Below, piece after piece: positions 695 through 9,673 of a DNA stretch of 17,560 nt. The notes beneath the pieces were generated by a model that saw only the letters and a list, made by a program, of their open reading frames with translations, had not been told where the DNA came from and made no database searches. Origin of the DNA: a virus (taxonomy: Duplodnaviria; Heunggongvirae; Uroviricota; Caudoviricetes); the IMG/VR virus record IMGVR_UViG_2534681831_000034, one strand, 5' to 3'. How positions within the stretch are numbered: position 1 is the first letter of the stretch; each line of letters starts with the position of its first letter. The translations under genes and the position numbers were made by a program.

Positions 695-953
695 TGTGGA
701 TACCCTTTATTTCACAGTAGACGACTGCTACCGCGTGGACTTCACACCACACGGACTGGCGTTGCACTGCCTGACACCGCACGGCGAATCACTGCTGGCG
801 TATTACGACTCCCCGGCCTCCGTATTTGCGGCAATGCTGGCGCATCGCACTGCTGGCGGGTGTGCCTCGCTGAGTGAATACACCGCTGAATTTAACCGCC
901 TTTCCACCATCTTCTTGCAGGAGTGGCAGCGCGTGACGGGATACCAGCCATGA
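695..953 (+). CDS. hypothetical small protein, translationally coupled to the replication gene A
   Basis: ORF in the six-frame track (576-953). I prefer the GTG at 695 because it follows a GGAGA Shine-Dalgarno-like sequence, and because the 576 start would overlap the integrase remnant on the opposite strand. Its stop (TGA 951-953) overlaps the ATG of A at 950 (ATGA). No motif recognised. Confidence 0.35.
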
Positions 954-3790
954 GTGAGTTTGCATGGAGCTGGAATGAACCACGACCAGCCATTGATCCG
1001 GCCAGATTTACGGAGCACAGGCAGGAAACTGAAACCGACCTGCAACGCGCCATCCGTTACTACCTTGAGGCAGACAAAAAGGCTCTGGAAGAACAGGAAG
1101 CGAAGGAGGAAGCCTTTTTCGCACAATCCACCGTGGGTAAAAAACTCATGGCATCCCTTGAGGAAGCCGGACAGCGTGAAAAGCTGGCACAGAACATCAT
1201 CAGTAAGCGTCAGGCAACAGAACAAGACCCGGTGGCCCGTGCTTTTGCCACACTGAAGGTGCTTCCCGTTTATCTGCGTGAACCTCTGAGCCGCCACCTC
1301 TCTTTCCTGCGCAAAAAACAGGAAGCCGATCGCCAGAAAGGCAAAAAGAGCTGGCAGGCTGAACGCTACGCGCGCGGAACCCTGCGCAAAATATTCGAAC
1401 GTCTGGACCGCACCGATCACCGCTGGCTGACACCGGGTTATCGCTCCCTTGCCGGACGCGAACGCCTGGACGATTTGCTTTACCTGCCGCAGCTCAACAA
1501 ACACCAGATACAGACGCTGGCCACCATGACGGCGGCGATGTTCAGCAGCACCTTCGAAAAACTCTGCGATGGCTTTGGCGCGACTGATGGCGAACTGACC
1601 ATGGATGTAACGCTGAAGGCGTATCAGATGCTGGCCCGCATGGCGTTACACCTGCACGCCATGCCTCCACATTATGACGCACTGACAACAGACAAAGACC
1701 GGAGGAACGAACCGGACACGGAGCTGCTGCCGGGCGCAATCCTTCGCCTGACCTGTGCGGAATGGTGGAAACGCAAACTGTGGCTGTTACGTTGCGAGTG
1801 GCGGGAAGAACAACTCCGCGCCGCCTGTCTGGTTTCCAGAAAAACATCGCCCTATCTGAGTCAGGACGCGTTAAGCGAGTTTCGCGCACAGCGCGAGAAA
1901 ACACGCGATTTCCTGAAAAGTTTCATGCTGGAAAATGAAGACGGGTTCACGATTGATCTCGAGACGGTGTATTACGCGGGAGTAAGTAACCCGGTTCACC
2001 GTAAGGCAGAAATGATGGCCACCATGAAGGGACTGGAACTTCTGGCCGAAGCCCGTGGCGACAGAGCGGTGTTTCTGACCGTCACCTGCCCGTCAAAATA
2101 CCACGCAACAACGGAGAACGGTCATCCGAACCCCAAATGGAACGGGGCCACCATGCGCGACTCCAGCGATTACCTGGTTAACACGTTTTTTGCGGCGGTC
2201 CGCAAAAAACTGAACCGCGACGGCCTGCGCTGGTATGGCATCCGCACGGTGGAGCCTCACCATGACGGCACTGTGCACTGGCATATGATGGTCTTTGCAC
2301 ATCCGGACGAGATTGAAACCATCGTGTCCCACGTCTGCGATATTGCCATTCAGGAGGACCGCCACGAGCTGGGCGATGACATAACTCCGCGTTTTAAGGC
2401 GGAGTATGTCGACGGCTCAAAAGGCACACCAACCAGCTACATCGCCACCTACATCGGAAAGAACCTGGACAGCCGCGCCGTGGATGGCATCGACCCGAAA
2501 ACGGGCAAGCCACGCGTTGACCACGAAACCGGAAAATCAATGGCCGAGAGCGTGGAGCGCGCCATCGGCTGGGCGCGCCTTCACCGGGTCCGTCAGTTCC
2601 AGTTCTTTGGCATCCCCTCCCGTCAGGTGTGGCGTGAACTGCGCCGCCTTGCCAGCCAGATGGCACGCAATCCGGAAGGCCCGCAACGGCTGAAAGATGA
2701 TGCAATGGATGCGGTACTCGCTGCCGCCGATGCCGGGTGTTTTGCCACCTACATTGAAAAACAGGGCGGCGTACTTGTTCCACGCAAAGACTACCTGATT
2801 CGCACCGCCTACGACCTCGCAGATGAGCTGAATGATTACGGCGAACAGAGCGTACAGATTTACGGGATCTGGTCACCACTCATCGGGGAATCCTCCCGTG
2901 TGTGCACGCATCCGGATAACTGGAAACTGGTAAGACGTAAACCGGAAACGGAAGACAGCGCCCGCGAAAATGGTTTTGACCTTCAGGGCGGCCCTGCCGC
3001 CCCTTGGACTCGTGGCAATAACTGTCCCCGTGTACAGGAAACGGACAACAACGGGGCAGAACAGCCGGAAGAACGGCCAGCACCGTGGCCGCAGCTCCCT
3101 GACGGCGTTGAAGTGAACGAATGGATGCGCTCACTGAAACGGCACGAACGCCGGGCGCTGATGCGTTCGCTTCGTGACAAACAGGCAAAAAACAGCAGTG
3201 ATGAAATGCAGAGCTGGACACAGAGCCGCAAACAGCAGCGGCCTTTGCCTGATAACCACGAATTACTCGCTAAAGAATGGCGGGAGTCTGCCGAATCTCT
3301 CGGCCTGCATATCGGTGAACAGCAGATGCAGCACCTGCTACGGGGCGGCAGCCTGTACGTTGACGGCAGCATCATTGCACCGCAGGGATATGAAATTGTA
3401 CGCAAACCGGATACCCGCCCGTACAGCCGAATCACGCAGCTCTGGCAGCACCTGAGCCGTAATCACGGCGTAAGCAGCACGGAGATCCGCCATAACCCGG
3501 TCGCCAGCTATCTGGCACAGCTGGGGGCATCAGACCCCGAAGCCGCCGCACGCCTGGCATCCGCACTTCAGCAGGATCAGAACACCATGAAAACACCCGT
3601 TACCGTGCTTTCTGACATGCTGCGCGCCATCCGCGACGCAGAGCACGCACAGAGAATCAGTGAAACCACTGAACGCGCCAGCCGCAAAGCAGACCTGCTG
3701 CAGGGTGGCCTGACCAGTGGAAACAAAAAACAGACAGAAACGGGACTCACGAATCCCGTAAATGAGCAAAAAACGCGCAGCGATATATGA
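950..3790 (+). CDS. A: phage replication initiation endonuclease, P2 gpA family (HUH rolling-circle nickase)
   Basis: Long ORF (track 923-3790). It contains an HUH-type metal-binding motif (HWHMMVF) and a paired-tyrosine motif (YIATYIGK) typical of the P2 A / phiX174 A superfamily. The start at ATG 950 is preferred over GTG 923 because of the ATGA coupling with the upstream ORF; either is possible. The protein is about 200 aa longer at the C-terminus than P2 gpA as I remember it (761 aa). Confidence 0.8.
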   Translation: MSEFAWSWNEPRPAIDPARFTEHRQETETDLQRAIRYYLEADKKALEEQEAKEEAFFAQSTVGKKLMASLEEAGQREKLAQNIISKRQATEQDPVARAFATLKVLPVYLREPLSRHLSFLRKKQEADRQKGKKSWQAERYARGTLRKIFERLDRTDHRWLTPGYRSLAGRERLDDLLYLPQLNKHQIQTLATMTAAMFSSTFEKLCDGFGATDGELTMDVTLKAYQMLARMALHLHAMPPHYDALTTDKDRRNEPDTELLPGAILRLTCAEWWKRKLWLLRCEWREEQLRAACLVSRKTSPYLSQDALSEFRAQREKTRDFLKSFMLENEDGFTIDLETVYYAGVSNPVHRKAEMMATMKGLELLAEARGDRAVFLTVTCPSKYHATTENGHPNPKWNGATMRDSSDYLVNTFFAAVRKKLNRDGLRWYGIRTVEPHHDGTVHWHMMVFAHPDEIETIVSHVCDIAIQEDRHELGDDITPRFKAEYVDGSKGTPTSYIATYIGKNLDSRAVDGIDPKTGKPRVDHETGKSMAESVERAIGWARLHRVRQFQFFGIPSRQVWRELRRLASQMARNPEGPQRLKDDAMDAVLAAADAGCFATYIEKQGGVLVPRKDYLIRTAYDLADELNDYGEQSVQIYGIWSPLIGESSRVCTHPDNWKLVRRKPETEDSARENGFDLQGGPAAPWTRGNNCPRVQETDNNGAEQPEERPAPWPQLPDGVEVNEWMRSLKRHERRALMRSLRDKQAKNSSDEMQSWTQSRKQQRPLPDNHELLAKEWRESAESLGLHIGEQQMQHLLRGGSLYVDGSIIAPQGYEIVRKPDTRPYSRITQLWQHLSRNHGVSSTEIRHNPVASYLAQLGASDPEAAARLASALQQDQNTMKTPVTVLSDMLRAIRDAEHAQRISETTERASRKADLLQGGLTSGNKKQTETGLTNPVNEQKTRSDI

Positions 3791-3866: not shown

Positions 3867-4826
3867 ATGAAAATTTGTATCGACGACGGCTCCACCAACA
3901 TCAAGCTGGCATGGACTGAGAACGGCGAACGCCGCAACGCCATCAGCCCGAACAGCTTCAAGTCGGAATGGTCTGCGCCGTTCGGTGGCACGCAGCCCGC
4001 GAACTACATGCTTGATGGCGTGCGCTATGGTTTTGATCCGGTCAGCGATCGCTTTGTCCAGACGACCGACACGCAATACCAATACAGTGATGTGAATGTC
4101 ATTGCCATTCATCACGCGCTGGTCAAATCAGGCATCACGCCACAGGAGGTGGATGTGGTTGTCACCCTGCCACTGAGCGAGTATTTCGACACAAACGCAC
4201 AGCCGGACATAGCCAACATCAACCGCAAAAAAGCGAACGTTATGCGCCCGGTGGAGTACCAGAACGGCGAAGCATTCACTATCCGTAACGTGCGGGTTAT
4301 GCCTGAATCCATTCCGGCTGGCTTTAAGGCACTGGCTGACATGAGTCCGTTTGAATCCCTGCTGATTGTGGATTTGGGCGGAACCACGCTGGATGTGGCA
4401 AAGGTTCAGGGGCAGCTGGCAGGTATCAGCCAGGTGTTTTGCGATCCACACGTAGGCGTTTCCCTGATGGCTGATGCCGTGCTGTCGGTGATGGCCACTA
4501 ACGGTATGCGTACCAGTCACCACATCGCCAATACCATTATTGAGCACCGTCACGATGAAGCCTGGCTGCGCCAGCACATTCACAATGACGCGCATTACAA
4601 CAGCCTGATGGCGGTTATTCGTGAAAAGGAGGAGACACTGAAACAACGAGTGATCCGCGCGCTGGCGGGTTTTTCCGGTTACGGGCGGGTGATGGTTGTC
4701 GGTGGAGGGGCGGAGATTGTGGCACCCGCTATCCGCGAAGCCTGCGGAGTTAATGCGACTTTCATCACGGACGGGGTGCCACATTTTGCTCTGGTTAATG
4801 GGCTGTACGCAATGAACAAGGAGTAA
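3867..4826 (+). CDS. parM: ParM/StbA-family actin-like plasmid segregation ATPase
   Basis: 319 aa with the actin-fold motifs IDDGSTNIKL (phosphate 1), DLGGTTLD (phosphate 2) and VVGGGAE (adenosine). It is collinear with plasmid R1 ParM (StbA) as I remember it. An AAGGA Shine-Dalgarno lies about 9 nt upstream of the ATG. Confidence 0.8.
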   Translation: MKICIDDGSTNIKLAWTENGERRNAISPNSFKSEWSAPFGGTQPANYMLDGVRYGFDPVSDRFVQTTDTQYQYSDVNVIAIHHALVKSGITPQEVDVVVTLPLSEYFDTNAQPDIANINRKKANVMRPVEYQNGEAFTIRNVRVMPESIPAGFKALADMSPFESLLIVDLGGTTLDVAKVQGQLAGISQVFCDPHVGVSLMADAVLSVMATNGMRTSHHIANTIIEHRHDEAWLRQHIHNDAHYNSLMAVIREKEETLKQRVIRALAGFSGYGRVMVVGGGAEIVAPAIREACGVNATFITDGVPHFALVNGLYAMNKE

Positions 4827-4830
4827 ACCA

Positions 4831-5142
4831 ATGACGACACCAACCAGAAGAATAAGTTTCTATCTGAAGCCAGCTGCCGTCAAGAACGAAGGAGAAGCAT
4901 GCGCCTGGCTGGACAGCCTTACACCAGAAGCCCGCAAAAGCGGCCAACGCGTGGCTTTTCTGGCCGGGCTGGCACTTCTGAAGACGAATCCGGCAGAGGC
5001 TTACCGACTGGCCGCATGGGCTGATGATGAGATGTTACCTGTGACACAAATCAGCTCAAAAAAGTTTGAAGCACAGTCTGCACCAGTGGCTAAGATAACC
5101 AGCCAGATGGCTGGGAATATCCGGGCGTTATTTCCTGAGTAA
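4831..5142 (+). CDS. parR: ParR/StbB-like centromere-binding adaptor
   Basis: 103 aa, starting 4 nt after the parM stop with an AAGGAG Shine-Dalgarno. The N-terminal region (RRISFYLKP...LDSLTPEARKSGQRVAFLAGLALLK) resembles the ribbon-helix-helix N-terminus of R1 ParR as remembered. Gene order parM then parR matches type II partition loci. Confidence 0.6.
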   Translation: MTTPTRRISFYLKPAAVKNEGEACAWLDSLTPEARKSGQRVAFLAGLALLKTNPAEAYRLAAWADDEMLPVTQISSKKFEAQSAPVAKITSQMAGNIRALFPE

Positions 5143-5270
5143 AAGCATCTGCGCGAAAAATGCTCACATTTATAGAAACAGTATCATTCCATTTGGCGCA
5201 CTTACTTCAATAATCGATCTGTTAAACAAATAGATTGTCTATTATCTATCGATTAAAACGATCAATTATC

Positions 5271-5299
5271 TTGACAGTAATGTGCCTTTTTGTAAGATC
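5271..5299 (+). promoter_or_regulatory. candidate sigma70 promoter (TTGACA-N16-TAAGAT)
   Basis: A perfect -35 hexamer TTGACA at 5271-5276 and a -10-like TAAGAT at 5293-5298, inside an AT-rich tract containing ATCGAT-centred inverted repeats. Predicted by eye only. Confidence 0.3.
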
Positions 5300-5347
5300 G
5301 TTCGCATTGTGAGCGACAAGATAATTGCGCGGCATTGTCCATGCAAA

Positions 5348-5490
5348 ACGCCCCAATAGCAGCAACTATTGGGGCGTAGAACTCGGTCGGACTCACTTAA
5401 CCTGATATGCGTGCCTTCCGAAGTAAATCAAAATGTGCGTCGTATATTTTATTGCTTACACGCACCTCTGTAAAGGCACGCATATTTTTC
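5348..5490 (+). promoter_or_regulatory. structured leader/attenuator-like RNA element upstream of the 5507 gene
   Basis: A perfect 12-bp stem hairpin (5348-5359 / 5366-5377, loop CAGCAA), then a perfect 13-bp inverted repeat (ATATGCGTGCCTT 5405-5417 / AAGGCACGCATAT 5473-5485) enclosing an inner GTGCGT/ACGCAC pair. The structure is followed by a T-run (5486-5489) and then the GAGG Shine-Dalgarno and GTG start of the downstream ORF. Confidence 0.4.
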
Positions 5491-5506
5491 CTATGAGGTA
5501 AATAAA

Positions 5507-5776
5507 GTGCGGGCTAAAACAGGTATTTGCAAGAACCCTCATCGTTATAACCCAACATTTCTGTCTCTCCCTGAATATCAAGGACAAGAAGGTCGGCACA
5601 AATGCGCTGCCTGTGCTTTTGAGCTAGGCATAAAAGATGCGCTTGAAGGACGCGCTATGGCTCAGAATGATTTAGTTTTAGCTAACATTCCGTTTAGCCA
5701 GGCTGGAACTGTAAGGCACAGAGATGCTTATGAAGCATATGTTCGTGGTTGGCGATTAATACACAGCAACAATTGA
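5507..5776 (+). CDS. small hypothetical protein with a putative C-x3-H...C-x2-C metal-binding motif
   Basis: 89-aa ORF with a GTG start preceded by GAGGT at about 7 nt. Cys8/His12/Cys33/Cys36 could form a zinc knuckle. It is AT-richer than the phage backbone and is followed immediately by a canonical intrinsic terminator. No family recognised. Confidence 0.5.
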   Translation: MRAKTGICKNPHRYNPTFLSLPEYQGQEGRHKCAACAFELGIKDALEGRAMAQNDLVLANIPFSQAGTVRHRDAYEAYVRGWRLIHSNN

Positions 5777-5785
5777 TATTTTTGA

Positions 5786-5808
5786 AGCGCCGATAAGGCG
5801 CTTTTTTT
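5786..5808 (+). terminator. rho-independent terminator
   Basis: GC stem AGCGCC (5786-5791) / GGCGCT (5797-5802) with loop GATAA, followed by a run of seven T (5802-5808), 10 nt after the stop of the 5507-5776 ORF. Confidence 0.7.
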
Positions 5809-6209
5809 GTTTGCACGATAGTGCACAAGTTTGCACAATTTTTTTGAACGACTTTTTGTACTTCCGGCCCGCGTGGCGGCTGGATCCGTCAAGGATCCGT
5901 ACGTGCACAAAAAACGCGTTTTTTCTACGCGCAGGTGACGGGGGAACAGCCCGCGTTTCAGGGGGGTAAACAGCATTCCCTGAACGATGTCGCAGAGACA
6001 CAACAGAATGGCCATATTTCTCACGCTGAGCATGAAAAAGGCGTGAGGGCTTTTGATTTGATGGGGTGAAAGGTAAGGCCGTCAAAATCGCACTGAGGCA
6101 GCGAGAACATACAGTCAACGCGGTGGGATTGCGTAAGAGTCTGACCGTCGATGGTGGCGATAAACTGGAAGGCGTCGTGAAATTATCTGATTGATACAGG
6201 AGCTGGAGA

Positions 6210-6238
6210 GCCGGGGCATAAATTTTTTATGCCCCGGC
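6210..6238. repeat. perfect 13-bp-stem hairpin (GCCGGGGCATAAA-TTT-TTTATGCCCCGGC)
   Basis: Read directly from the sequence. It lies about 100 bp upstream of the 6338 ORF and has no flanking U-tract on either strand outside the stem, so it is not a canonical terminator. Confidence 0.5.
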
Positions 6239-6337
6239 GAAGCAGCAGACAAGCGAAGCGCGTCAGTGATGCGGCACCTTGCCGACCACACTTCATAAGT
6301 GCAAAATACGAGCAAAGAAATCAATGGAGGCTGTTTT

Positions 6338-6862
6338 ATGGTCATTAATTACAAGCAGTTACGAGAAAAACGAGAGCAGGTAAAGGAAAGTTTTCGCCGC
6401 AATGAAGATCTGACCCCGCTTGTACACCTTGCTCAGGGAATTGTAGATGCTTATGAAATCTCTCTGGAGCTGCCATCACAGACATGGACTGATAGCGACG
6501 GTAATCGCCAGCATTACGTTTCATGCGGACTGGAAACAACTGAAGGGTTTCGCAGAATGCCTTTATCTCAGATTCCTGCCTCTACCCCCAAAGCAAGGGG
6601 CGGCAATGATGAGCGAAAACTGATTTTCAGCATTGAGACAGTGGTTGACGACACACCTGGCGAAGTCGCCTTCGTGCATACTCCTCTTTCGATCGCAATG
6701 TATAACGATGAAATACAGGTTCGCGTTAATAATAATATCGTGCCACTTAAAGAAGGTAATTCACCCTACACCACCGTTTGTGAAGCCATTCAATATTACG
6801 TTCTCTCTGAAATTGATAATCTCAAGCCTGACGGCACCCAGAAAATGGTTCAACTCTGGTAA
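6338..6862 (+). CDS. hypothetical 174-aa protein (cargo/moron gene, unknown function)
   Basis: ATG at 6338 is preceded by GGAGG at 7 nt (the track ORF begins at 6299, but that start has no ribosome-binding site). AT-richer codon composition than the flanking phage genes. It ends at a bidirectional terminator and is convergent with portal gene Q. No catalytic motif recognised. Confidence 0.55.
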   Translation: MVINYKQLREKREQVKESFRRNEDLTPLVHLAQGIVDAYEISLELPSQTWTDSDGNRQHYVSCGLETTEGFRRMPLSQIPASTPKARGGNDERKLIFSIETVVDDTPGEVAFVHTPLSIAMYNDEIQVRVNNNIVPLKEGNSPYTTVCEAIQYYVLSEIDNLKPDGTQKMVQLW

Positions 6863-6867
6863 AAAGG

Positions 6868-6893
6868 ACAGCCCCATCACGGGGCTGTTTTTT
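6868..6893. terminator. bidirectional rho-independent terminator between the convergent cargo gene and Q
   Basis: An 8-bp stem ACAGCCCC (6868-6875) / GGGGCTGT (6881-6888) with loop ATCAC, flanked by A5 on the left and T6 on the right, so a U-tract follows the stem on both strands. It overlaps the Q stop codon (6877-6879). Confidence 0.7.
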
Positions 6894-7923
6894 CATCAAG
6901 AAGAGCATAAGAATTAAAACGGATCACCTCTTCGCCAAGCCAGTCATTGATGTGCTTCATGGCCTCCATAACGGGCATCAGCTCGTTAATTGCATAAACC
7001 CGCGCGGCCTTCTCCACATCACCAAACGCACTTTTTTCGCCCGGCATCGCCCCCATCAGTTGCGGCGGAACACGGTGCGCAGCCAGCACATCATCACGGG
7101 ATGCCGCCTTAACATTCATGAACTCATCTTTTGCGGTGATCTGCTGGAACGGCAAAATTTGCACCCCCTCTTTGCCCCCGTTGGGCGCATGAATGAGCAC
7201 GTTTTTAAATGCACCACTACCACGTGCACCCTGTAATGTTTCTTTCAGGGAGTCCATGCTTTCGCGGTTTACCTGCGCTGCACCGATGTAGATGATGCAC
7301 CCGGCGTGGGATCCGTTGTCGTAATACAGTTTTCTGAACATGTCCGCCGAATGAGACAGGCTGGCCGAGAGTAATGCGCCGAGATATTCCGGCATGCCGT
7401 AGATTTCCTGGTTAATATCCGGATTCATCAGGTGGCACACTTTGCCAGGGCGAAACTGAAACGCGTCCTTGCCATCCTGCACATACCACCATGATTCAAG
7501 ATCGCTTCCGCGTCGCATGTATTTCGCCAGTGCGTGCCGTAATTTAAGCGGTTCGCCGAGCATATTGCTTCGAAGCTCAAGGTATGCGTTACCGAACACA
7601 AACCAGTCCAGCGCCAGCGCCGAGAAATCCTGCCGGGAAAGCAGCGGGTGCGGAATATAGCAGCCGAGCAATACATTGCGCTTAAAGTAAAGCGCAGACT
7701 GATGCCAGGACGTTTGCCGGGCGGCTCTTGCCAGACCGTACCAGTCCACCGGGGTTTCATACCACCGCCCGTTATCAGCACAGTACATATTGTCCAGCAA
7801 ATCATGCCCGGTCAGGCGATAAGGACCATCAAAAGTGAATGCACTGAGCGACGATTCTTTCCTGAGCGCATCAGCGAGATCAATGCGTGAACTCATGCGC
7901 ACTTTTTTATTTTTTCTGCTCAT
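6877..7923 (-). CDS. Q: portal protein, P2 gpQ family
   Basis: 348 aa, matching the length of P2 gpQ (about 344 aa) and its position immediately downstream of the terminase ATPase. Its ATG (7921-7923) overlaps the stop of the upstream gene (ATGA coupling). Confidence 0.85.
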   Translation of the reverse strand: MSRKNKKVRMSSRIDLADALRKESSLSAFTFDGPYRLTGHDLLDNMYCADNGRWYETPVDWYGLARAARQTSWHQSALYFKRNVLLGCYIPHPLLSRQDFSALALDWFVFGNAYLELRSNMLGEPLKLRHALAKYMRRGSDLESWWYVQDGKDAFQFRPGKVCHLMNPDINQEIYGMPEYLGALLSASLSHSADMFRKLYYDNGSHAGCIIYIGAAQVNRESMDSLKETLQGARGSGAFKNVLIHAPNGGKEGVQILPFQQITAKDEFMNVKAASRDDVLAAHRVPPQLMGAMPGEKSAFGDVEKAARVYAINELMPVMEAMKHINDWLGEEVIRFNSYALLDEKTAP

Positions 7924-9673
7924 CAGAACTCCATAACCGTGAAACGCTCGTTTTCTCCTTCGCCGCCAATTGGTTCGTTAATGACAGCAAGCATGGTTGC
8001 CCACGCAAGGTCGCCGTGGCTGATCCCCCTCGCGCGGTCCGTTTCGTAAGTGATAAAACCGCCCGGTGTTTTCACCTTACGCACGGCGTTAAAGGCCGCG
8101 ACCAGCTCGCGTTCGGCGCGATCGTATTCCCACCGCCCGGCACGCATTATTTGCAGCATTTTCAGTACCAGCGACCGTTTTGATGACAGCGTGAAGGTGT
8201 ACGGAATAGCAGCAGGGAAAAACCGTTTCACTATCTGATAAACAGCCTCCCCGTTCCCGCCCGTCACATCAATGCCGATGTGTTCCACGTTGTAGCGACA
8301 CGTGAACTCTTCAATGACTCTGGCCTGTTCTTCAAACTCCAGCCCCTGAACGCGTCGCGTCTCCACCGTTCGAAAACGGCCACCAGGAACAGCCGGAGGA
8401 ACCACCACAGACACAGCGCCGCTGTCGCCGTTGCCACTGCTGCCGTTTGCGTCATACCCAATCCATACCGGACGATTCCCCATCGGGCGGGGAGCAAAAG
8501 GTTTCCAGTCTTTCCAGTCGTCGTATCCGTCAACACCGCAGCCAATCAGGATATTCAGGTTAAATGCCGATTCCCCTTCGCGGACAAACTCACACATATA
8601 GAGATTGAGGAACTCGTCTTCGGTGTTTTCATCACGAATTTCGTCGATATCGGTGTGTTTCCAGCCGTGATTAACCACATCTTCCAGCGTGACAATTTGC
8701 CGCCACGTCCGGTCAGGGCAGATAAGCCCGTTATGCAGCGTATTCCAGTCCACAGAAAAACGCCGGCGTTTATGCGTGGCCTTTTTCTCGTTCCAGCGGT
8801 CGCCGTTCCAGTAGGCGTATGCCTCGTGCGTTTCGGTGGATGGCGTGGAGAAGTAGGTGCGCCGCAGTCCGCTGAGGGTTGCCATAGCGCCAGCCACCTT
8901 GCGTAGTTCAGCAAAGCGACTGACCCAGAAAAATTCATCAAAATAAAAATTGCCCGTATAGGACTGCGCCGACGCAGCAGAAGTGCCGAGAAAATGCAGC
9001 TCTGCGCCATTGGAGAGGATGATTTTATCGCCCCCTTTCAGCTCCACATCAACTTCAGCCGCAGCCTTCTGAATAATGCTTTTAAACTGGAACGCCTGAC
9101 GACGCGACGCAGACAAAAAATCTGGTTACGCTGGTAAGGTTGCGCCACATCGTCACGCAGCGCCATCAGCAGAGCTTCCTGTGCAAAATACCAGGTCGCC
9201 CCAATCTGTCGGGATTTCAGGATCATCCTGTTACGTATCCCGGCTTCCCTGCAAAGGGTCAGGGAGTCAAACCAGCCCCGCTGATGCCACTCCAGCCTGC
9301 TGATGATTTTTTCCCGCAGTGCGGAAATCTGTTCCGGCGTGAAATGATTTTTGAGTTTTTTCGCCCGGCCTTTCTTTCCTGCGGCCATCACATCCGGATG
9401 GCCATCATGCAGCTTTTTAAGCTGCCGGGTCAGCAGGTCTATTTCCTTAAAATCACCGCCTGTTTTATTCTGTTTTTCAGTAAGCTGGATGAGGCGCGCA
9501 TCGATGGACTGCGTGACACGCTGCACGGGTGGCGTTTCATCCCACTGGTCGCGTTTTTTCCACGCATAAATCGTGTTCGGGTTTATTCCCATCAGACGTG
9601 ATATTTCTGCGGGCGGATAACCCTGCCAGTAAAGTTGCCGCGCACGCTGGCGCACAAAAGCGTCCTGAATCAT
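7923..9673 (-). pseudogene. P: terminase large (ATPase) subunit, P2 gpP family, interrupted by an apparent 1-nt frameshift
   Basis: Two overlapping minus-strand ORFs (9673-9038, 211 aa, and 9116-7923, 397 aa) together span about 583 codons, close to P2 gpP (590 aa). The first ORF ends in an out-of-frame tail. The frames switch at an A6/T6 homopolymer at 9115-9120; adding one T would fuse them into one frame (..QRNQIF-LSASRRQAFQF..). Confidence 0.75.

Follow-up and report, generated by a model that had tools for sequence, protein, structure and literature searches.

Classical morons are genes that carry their own promoter and terminator and lie between two late or structural genes of a phage, as do bor and lom of phage lambda (Juhala/Hendrix et al.). 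In phages related to P2, the interval between the replication gene gpA and the portal gene gpQ has been defined as a hotspot of antiviral systems (Rousset et al. 2022, PMC9122126), and numerous unknown genes at such hotspots protect against phages (PMC9122126, PMC13586616). We analyzed a 17,560-nt stretch of viral DNA, IMG/VR record IMGVR_UViG_2534681831_000034, which we refer to as the window. Judged by its sequence, the window is a P88-like prophage of E. coli (Xuanwuvirus, Peduoviridae; the P2 family), and its nearest phage records are those of P88-like Xuanwuvirus phages. Our subject is a gene for a 174-aa protein that lies between gpA and gpQ of this P2-like element. An initial annotation of the gene had described it as an orphan that may have been acquired as a moron, and missed that its position is the known P2 gpA–gpQ hotspot.

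The gene and the signals around it form a compact unit next to the portal gene, with the following features.

6268-6894: insertion cassette of 627 bp in this prophage, with 14 nt in its place in P88 and 520873 (BLAST and junction alignments)
6279-6307, plus strand: candidate sigma-70 promoter, with a -35 element TTGCCG at 6279-6284, a 17-nt spacer and a -10 element CAAAAT at 6302-6307
6326-6330, plus strand: Shine-Dalgarno sequence GGAGG, 7 nt 5' of the ATG
6338-6862, plus strand: coding sequence of the 174-aa protein, a member of PHROG 5091, from the ATG at 6338 to the TAA at 6860-6862
6868-6888, both strands: bidirectional intrinsic terminator hairpin of 21 nt, ACAGCCCC-ATCAC-GGGGCTGT
6877-7923, minus strand: portal gene Q (phrog_68, E = 1.7e-153)

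On both flanks of the cassette, the window is collinear with phages P88 and 520873, at 91-97% identity; between position 6267 and approximately 6895, those phages have 14 nt instead of the 627 bp. The left junction coincides exactly with the former portal stop codon, still present as a relic, and the right junction lies within the portal gene, five codons in. The incoming segment supplies the portal stop codon and the last five codons (6877-6894), and the portal protein here ends in ...LLDEKTAP, as opposed to ...LLDTQPTS in P88. The G+C content of the 174-aa gene is 0.451, compared with 0.548 for the whole window. At third codon positions (GC3) it is 0.429, compared with 0.587 for the portal gene and 0.681 for the capsid gene; the values for portal, capsid and gpA range from 0.587 to 0.681. 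The cassette is thus a discrete insertion with expression signals and deviant composition that is absent from sibling genomes, and its identification as a moron, which the initial annotation had suggested from its placement, is well supported by these comparisons. Like the classical morons, it is discrete, has a promoter-like element and its own terminator, differs in base composition and is missing from sibling genomes. It differs from them in having been inserted inside the last five portal codons, which it replaced, and in that its expression from the prophage is a prediction.

As a unit, the cassette comprises the promoter-like element, the Shine-Dalgarno sequence, the open reading frame and the bidirectional terminator, and it is convergent with the late P-Q operon. 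Several features that the initial annotation had listed were borne out by direct measurement: the strong ribosome-binding site in front of an ATG, the AT-rich composition, and the tail-to-tail packing against portal gene Q, with a gap of 14 nt (6863-6876) and a terminator in common. The terminator hairpin is flanked by A5 (6861-6865) and T5 (6889-6893). Its folding energy is -21.5 kcal/mol on the plus strand and -18.8 kcal/mol on the minus strand (z-scores of -5.8 and -4.6, respectively), and 0 of 200 shuffled sequences folded as well. Because the portal stop codon sits inside the hairpin loop, with the last three portal codons in the right arm, the terminator is physically common to the two genes. 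At two Salmonella-type loci whose proteins are about 60% identical to that of the window (L024 and L026), a hairpin occupies the same place with a different sequence, so that structure rather than sequence is conserved. In the same two loci, TTGTCT and CAAAAT are 17 nt apart and as far from the start codon as their counterparts in the window, while the spacer and the sequence flanking the hexamers have diverged. Another hairpin, a perfect 13-bp stem (GCCGGGGCATAAA/TTTATGCCCCGGC) at 6210-6238, has a folding energy of -31.6 kcal/mol (z-score of -7.4) and lacks a U-tract on both strands. Conserved in P88-like phages, it lies about 30 nt past the portal stop codon where the cassette is absent and, in the window, about 40 nt 5' of the candidate -35 element.

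Positions 6338-6862 are a genuine gene under selection. Eight pairwise comparisons with the window copy (seven E. coli chromosomal copies and the copy in phage PhiR44_2) gave ratios of nonsynonymous to synonymous substitution rates (dN/dS) of 0.08-0.24, and the reading frame was unbroken in all copies examined, including those at 46-63% protein identity. The absence of any family annotation, and the name 'hypothetical' given by every source, might be taken to mean that this is a chance open reading frame or a decaying remnant with no function. We regard that explanation as extremely improbable because it is contradicted by the selection and conservation data. The protein is conserved over its full length down to 22-30% identity among 46 aligned relatives, its AlphaFold model is confident (pLDDT, a per-residue confidence score, of 90.3), and its expression signals are conserved, with GGAG and the ATG kept in every aligned homologous locus.

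The cassette is common in E. coli. It was found at 401 places in 397 of 5426 complete genomes (~7%, or about one in fourteen), always on the chromosome and always adjoining the portal gene. Carriers include O111:H8/H- strains and the sequence type 131 (ST131) strain JJ1886, and E. coli O111 chromosomes match the cassette in the window with 100% identity. The P88-type spacer on the left side of the junction occurs at 1305 places in 1142 genomes, so the cassette fills approximately 31% of such sites (401/1305). Among P88-type prophages, it is therefore a presence/absence polymorphism by sequence comparison.

The protein itself is more widespread still. At least 1000 public contigs encode the exact window protein. 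A search of 5.8 billion proteins returned 19 clusters from E. coli, Salmonella and Trabulsiella, every one of them with the name 'hypothetical'; Yersinia enterocolitica and Serratia marcescens contribute further cluster members. An exhaustive search with a hidden Markov model retrieved 85 cluster representatives at E ≤ 1e-3, which mostly have lengths of 155-175 aa and align end to end, and a degenerate motif search added five IMG/VR phage contigs and one Xenorhabdus genome. The window protein matches PHROG 5091, a family of unknown function, over its full length (E = 6.8e-67, residues 1-168 on profile positions 1-164 of 164), and all 46 of the distant relatives tested match the same family. 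The term 'orphan' therefore does not apply to this gene.

An alignment of the 46 relatives, which are 21-56% identical, showed that Y39, S42, L43, L45, W50, Y60, V61, F97 and T101 are nearly invariant, and the family consensus includes a TVxDDxPxGG hairpin tip. At alignment column K152, where K is nearly invariant in the rest of PHROG 5091, the enterobacterial branch has Q. The protein is soluble, has an isoelectric point of 5.0 (family median 5.1) and contains no hydrophobic segment. It is a member of no known functional family: neither it nor any of the 46 relatives matched Pfam or NCBIfam. Together with the PADLOC result given below, this agrees with the initial annotation, which had seen no nucleotide-binding, nuclease or transmembrane motif in the translation.

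AlphaFold2 produced a model with a pLDDT of 79.6 from 10 sequences and 90.3 (pTM, a whole-fold confidence score, of 0.80) from 46 sequences, with the same topology in both cases. In the predicted structure, two helices at the N-terminus are followed by an antiparallel sheet, in which a long hairpin is the main element, and by a C-terminal helix. Foldseek comparison with the PDB and BFVD yielded nothing at E ≤ 1e-3, and these structure searches and the family searches revealed no homology to a housekeeping or phage structural family. The weak structural matches have only a general plan in common with the model, namely helices packed on an antiparallel sheet; many of the weakly matching domains are dimerisation or partner-binding modules. 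A profile of 46 sequences found no match among PDB sequences. With a 10-sequence profile, designed helical repeat proteins in the PDB had appeared as hits (E = 4e-10), but they vanished with the 46-sequence profile, and we consider them an artefact of the shallow profile. Based on the model, a novel effector fold, as the initial annotation had proposed, is possible.

To compare the locus with the arrangement in P2, the features on the gpA side of the cassette are needed.

923-3790: replication gene gpA (PF05840, E = 1.5e-129)
3867-5142: partition pair ParM/ParR (ParM/StbA, PF06406, E = 3.5e-82; ParR/StbB, PF10784, E = 9.8e-24)
5507-5776: 89-aa gene, function unknown (phrog_3941; GC3 0.31)
5800-5970: cos-like packaging region, 72-82% identical in P2-like loci of Salmonella, Trabulsiella and other hosts

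We take 5800-5970 as the cos region. The block includes TGCAC(A/G)A repeats at 5811, 5822 and 5832 as well as a GCGCAGGTGACGGGGG motif, its layout resembles the surroundings of the annotated P2 cos, and the virion record of P88_4B11 begins inside it, at approximately window position 5854. The P2 cos 19-mer was absent from the window in exact or near-exact form, and the region was placed by conservation instead. This cos-like region separates the 174-aa gene from the remaining hotspot cargo on the gpA side. Lying between cos and Q, the gene would be at the left end of virion DNA. In a P2-like prophage of E. coli (locus L027, GCA_018456985.1), an extra gene for a 167-aa protein with no Pfam match, at 5355-5858 of that locus, is present between the cos-like block and a 172-aa homologue of our protein, so the short interval from cos to portal can take more than one cassette.

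Among known systems, the gene comes closest to cargo of the gpA–gpQ hotspot such as old and tin of P2. Like those genes, the 174-aa gene lies between A and portal gene Q next to cos, varies in presence among close relatives, and appears to have its own expression rather than being transcribed from the late operon. Its position relative to cos differs: the cos-like region has the 174-aa gene on its portal side, and in P2 old and tin are found on the gpA side. Homology to P2 Tin was ruled out (hhalign probability of 0.3%).

The protein has already been catalogued as cargo of the hotspot, yet it is uncharacterised. In Table S5A of Rousset et al. 2022 (PMC9122126), the exact window protein (WP_000236489) and the variant found in JJ1886 (WP_000236495) are both listed as 'hypothetical', the latter with at least 167 entries. 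The accessions given there for ParM, the partition protein and the 174-aa protein are those annotated at the identical locus of E. coli E2863. WP_000236489, WP_000236493 and WP_000236495 were verified as variants of one protein. The systems that this study reports to have cloned do not include the protein (PMC9122126). Our literature search found no paper that mentions the accessions, UniProt identifiers or PHROG number, and the supplements of Vassallo et al. 2022 held nothing on the protein.

The genomic settings of the relatives vary with phage type. Members of the enterobacterial branch (60-99% identity) without exception face the portal gene tail to tail, and what lies across cos differs from locus to locus: ParM/ParR with a DUF4760 gene or the 89-aa gene, a helix-turn-helix gene with an M78 peptidase, a YafO toxin, or Ead/Ea22-like genes. 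In a Trabulsiella P2-like prophage, the relative (46% identity) directly follows gpA and is upstream of HicAB, Phd-Fic and the cos-like block. Distant relatives in lambdoid phages are single genes between the Q antiterminator gene and the holin/endolysin genes. In tail modules of E217/Pam3-like myoviruses, we found relatives in three positions (before Dit, between the hub-associated protein and sheath initiator genes, and before the tape measure gene), and otherwise collinear modules exist that do not have the gene. One relative is chromosomal, with no phage genes nearby. No partner gene recurred across the loci examined. A functional link to ParM/ParR or to the 89-aa gene was considered and rejected, since each occurs without the other in related phages. 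As far as gene order can indicate, these settings have the pattern of a mobile, stand-alone accessory function.

The most likely role of the 174-aa protein, to which we assign a probability of roughly 0.4, would be that of a non-enzymatic, protein-binding phage-exclusion factor expressed from the prophage. Under this proposal, an accessory gene would have been inserted into the last five portal codons, within the cos-proximal part of the gpA–gpQ hotspot of exchangeable cargo. Its transcription would be independent, driven by a weak sigma-70 promoter and convergent to that of the late P-Q operon, and the common bidirectional terminator would insulate the gene from that operon, so that the product could be made in the lysogen. 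The product would then act stoichiometrically by binding another protein. Its purpose would be the exclusion of competing phages, as a one-gene defence or lysogenic-conversion factor equivalent to what old and tin do in P2. We infer lysogen expression, action by binding and the anti-phage role from four kinds of evidence. The site is where P2 keeps old and tin, and many cargo genes there protect against phages. The gene appears to have its own promoter and to be insulated from late transcription. One copy is chromosomal and outside any phage. Finally, Table S10 of DefensePredictor lists WP_000236487.1, an E. coli hypothetical protein of 174 aa (525 nt), as 'Predicted novel defense gene' with a log-odds score of 4.65 (PMC13092281). 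This is probably a variant of the window protein, given its length, its species and an accession run that also holds WP_000236489, WP_000236493 and WP_000236495.

Several observations weigh against phage exclusion. The candidate promoter is weak, matching 8 of 12 consensus positions, and a consensus scan that needs 9 did not call it; the conservation of the site in the comparisons described above may make up for this. PADLOC (PADLOC-DB 2.0) had no match for the protein, and among the 46 relatives it gave a single match, with E = 0.009. Part of the cargo of the gpA–gpQ hotspot is non-defensive, for example partition genes and cytolethal distending toxin (Rousset et al. 2022, PMC9122126). The log-odds score of WP_000236487.1 is barely over the cutoff of 4, and its link to PHROG 5091 is by accession run, length and species; in the accessible part of the DefensePredictor tables (PMC13092281), the window protein was found neither by accession nor by sequence string. 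DefensePredictor also reads neighbouring genes, which means that its score is not independent of the hotspot argument (PMC13092281), and its predictions have been validated at 45% overall, less often near the cutoff. No experiment ties PHROG 5091 to any phenotype. The lambdoid and myovirus relatives are co-oriented with late genes, which suggests expression during lytic growth and fits a counter-defence or phage-intrinsic role at least as well.

Such a counter-defence role would be that of a small acidic binder that neutralises host or prophage immunity, for instance a sensor of late structural proteins, and thereby aids lytic growth. The protein is small, soluble, mildly acidic and without an enzymatic motif, as this would require, and its relatives right after the Q antiterminator gene, before lysis genes or in tail operons have the late orientation. 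The gene in the window, in contrast, faces the late operon convergently and has a candidate promoter of its own, one relative lies on a chromosome away from any phage genes, and recognised anti-defence genes occur in just 28 of 1511 P2 elements (PMC13586616). On balance, we think counter-defence unlikely. An improbable explanation in our judgment is also that the gene is lysogenic-conversion cargo of a sort not directed at phages, for example an orphan immunity protein that counters a bacterial toxin (a contact-dependent, Rhs or type VI secretion effector) or a binding protein that modulates host physiology. Toxin-antitoxin pairs do adjoin the gene in Trabulsiella and at one myovirus locus, TciA/TciB-type moron genes adjoin the relative in phage CharmingMan, and non-defence cargo is known in the hotspot. 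Against this, the structural scores are all weak, no sequence homology to immunity families was found, and no cognate toxin gene recurs beside the gene in the loci examined.

That the gene stays beside the portal gene throughout the enterobacterial subfamily (60-99% identity), whatever the other cargo and with the cos-like region a few hundred bases away, raises the question of whether the protein is a phage-intrinsic helper of packaging or morphogenesis tied to portal and cos. The location of other relatives within tail modules would also fit. We consider this very unlikely. About 70% of P88-type prophages, as well as the P88 and 520873 records, do without the gene, the Trabulsiella copy is on the opposite side of cos beside gpA, and one copy is chromosomal. 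In otherwise collinear tail modules, the position of the gene varies and some have no copy at all. Recombination in the conserved cos and Q flanks would explain the adjacency to the portal gene equally well. Phage exclusion remains our preferred reading of the gene in the window. For the family as a whole, we suggest only tentatively, and regard as somewhat doubtful, that PHROG 5091 founds a new one-protein module of phage conflict (defence or counter-defence) that would act purely by binding a protein of phage or host, with a fold that has no solved relative, and would move as a single-gene moron among P2-like, lambdoid and E217/Pam3-like temperate phages.

Other features of the window were recorded in passing. 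The gpA protein is 955 aa long here, and its Phage_GPA domain is limited to residues 194-518. It has a C-terminal extension of about 430 aa without a Pfam match; P2 gpA is annotated at 28034-30319, or approximately 761 aa. The ParM/ParR pair, of a type known from plasmid partition, directly follows gpA in this chromosomally integrated P2-like prophage; pairs of this type have been recorded in roughly one in four P2-like phages (Rousset et al. 2022, PMC9122126). After ParR, positions 5143-5500 are non-coding and AT-rich (~41% G+C) and contain the region's best sigma-70-like site, TTGACA-16 nt-TAAGAT at 5271-5298. The 89-aa gene has its own terminator at 5784-5804. Phage 520873 carries the 89-aa gene and lacks the 174-aa gene, and in PhiR44_2 it is the other way round, so the two form independent cassettes. 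Scans of the window for Rfam families and tRNAs gave no match.

Beyond the 174-aa gene, the minus strand carries portal gene Q and the large terminase gene, then the scaffold, capsid and small terminase genes and further late genes. The large terminase gene (7923-9673, minus strand) is broken into two reading frames, 9673-9038 and 9116-7923. The A-run at 9115-9120 has six A residues in the window and seven in E. coli E2863, within a 2-kb stretch that is otherwise 99.8% identical. This is either a genuine inactivating frameshift, in which case the prophage is defective, or a sequencing error in a homopolymer.

As it stands, the 174-aa gene is one more uncharacterised cargo gene in a described hotspot, catalogued there already, and a published predictor has probably flagged it. 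As a candidate for plaque assays it is reasonable, and it would not surprise a specialist. The locus is a clean example of how hotspot cargo is exchanged, because the cassette brought with it a replacement portal C-terminus and a terminator. If the protein does exclude phages or disarm defence, it would add a single-protein mechanism without a recognisable domain, and would give a function to a gene that about one complete E. coli genome in fourteen carries, ST131-type (JJ1886) and O111 strains among them. In that case, it could matter for the choice of therapeutic phages.
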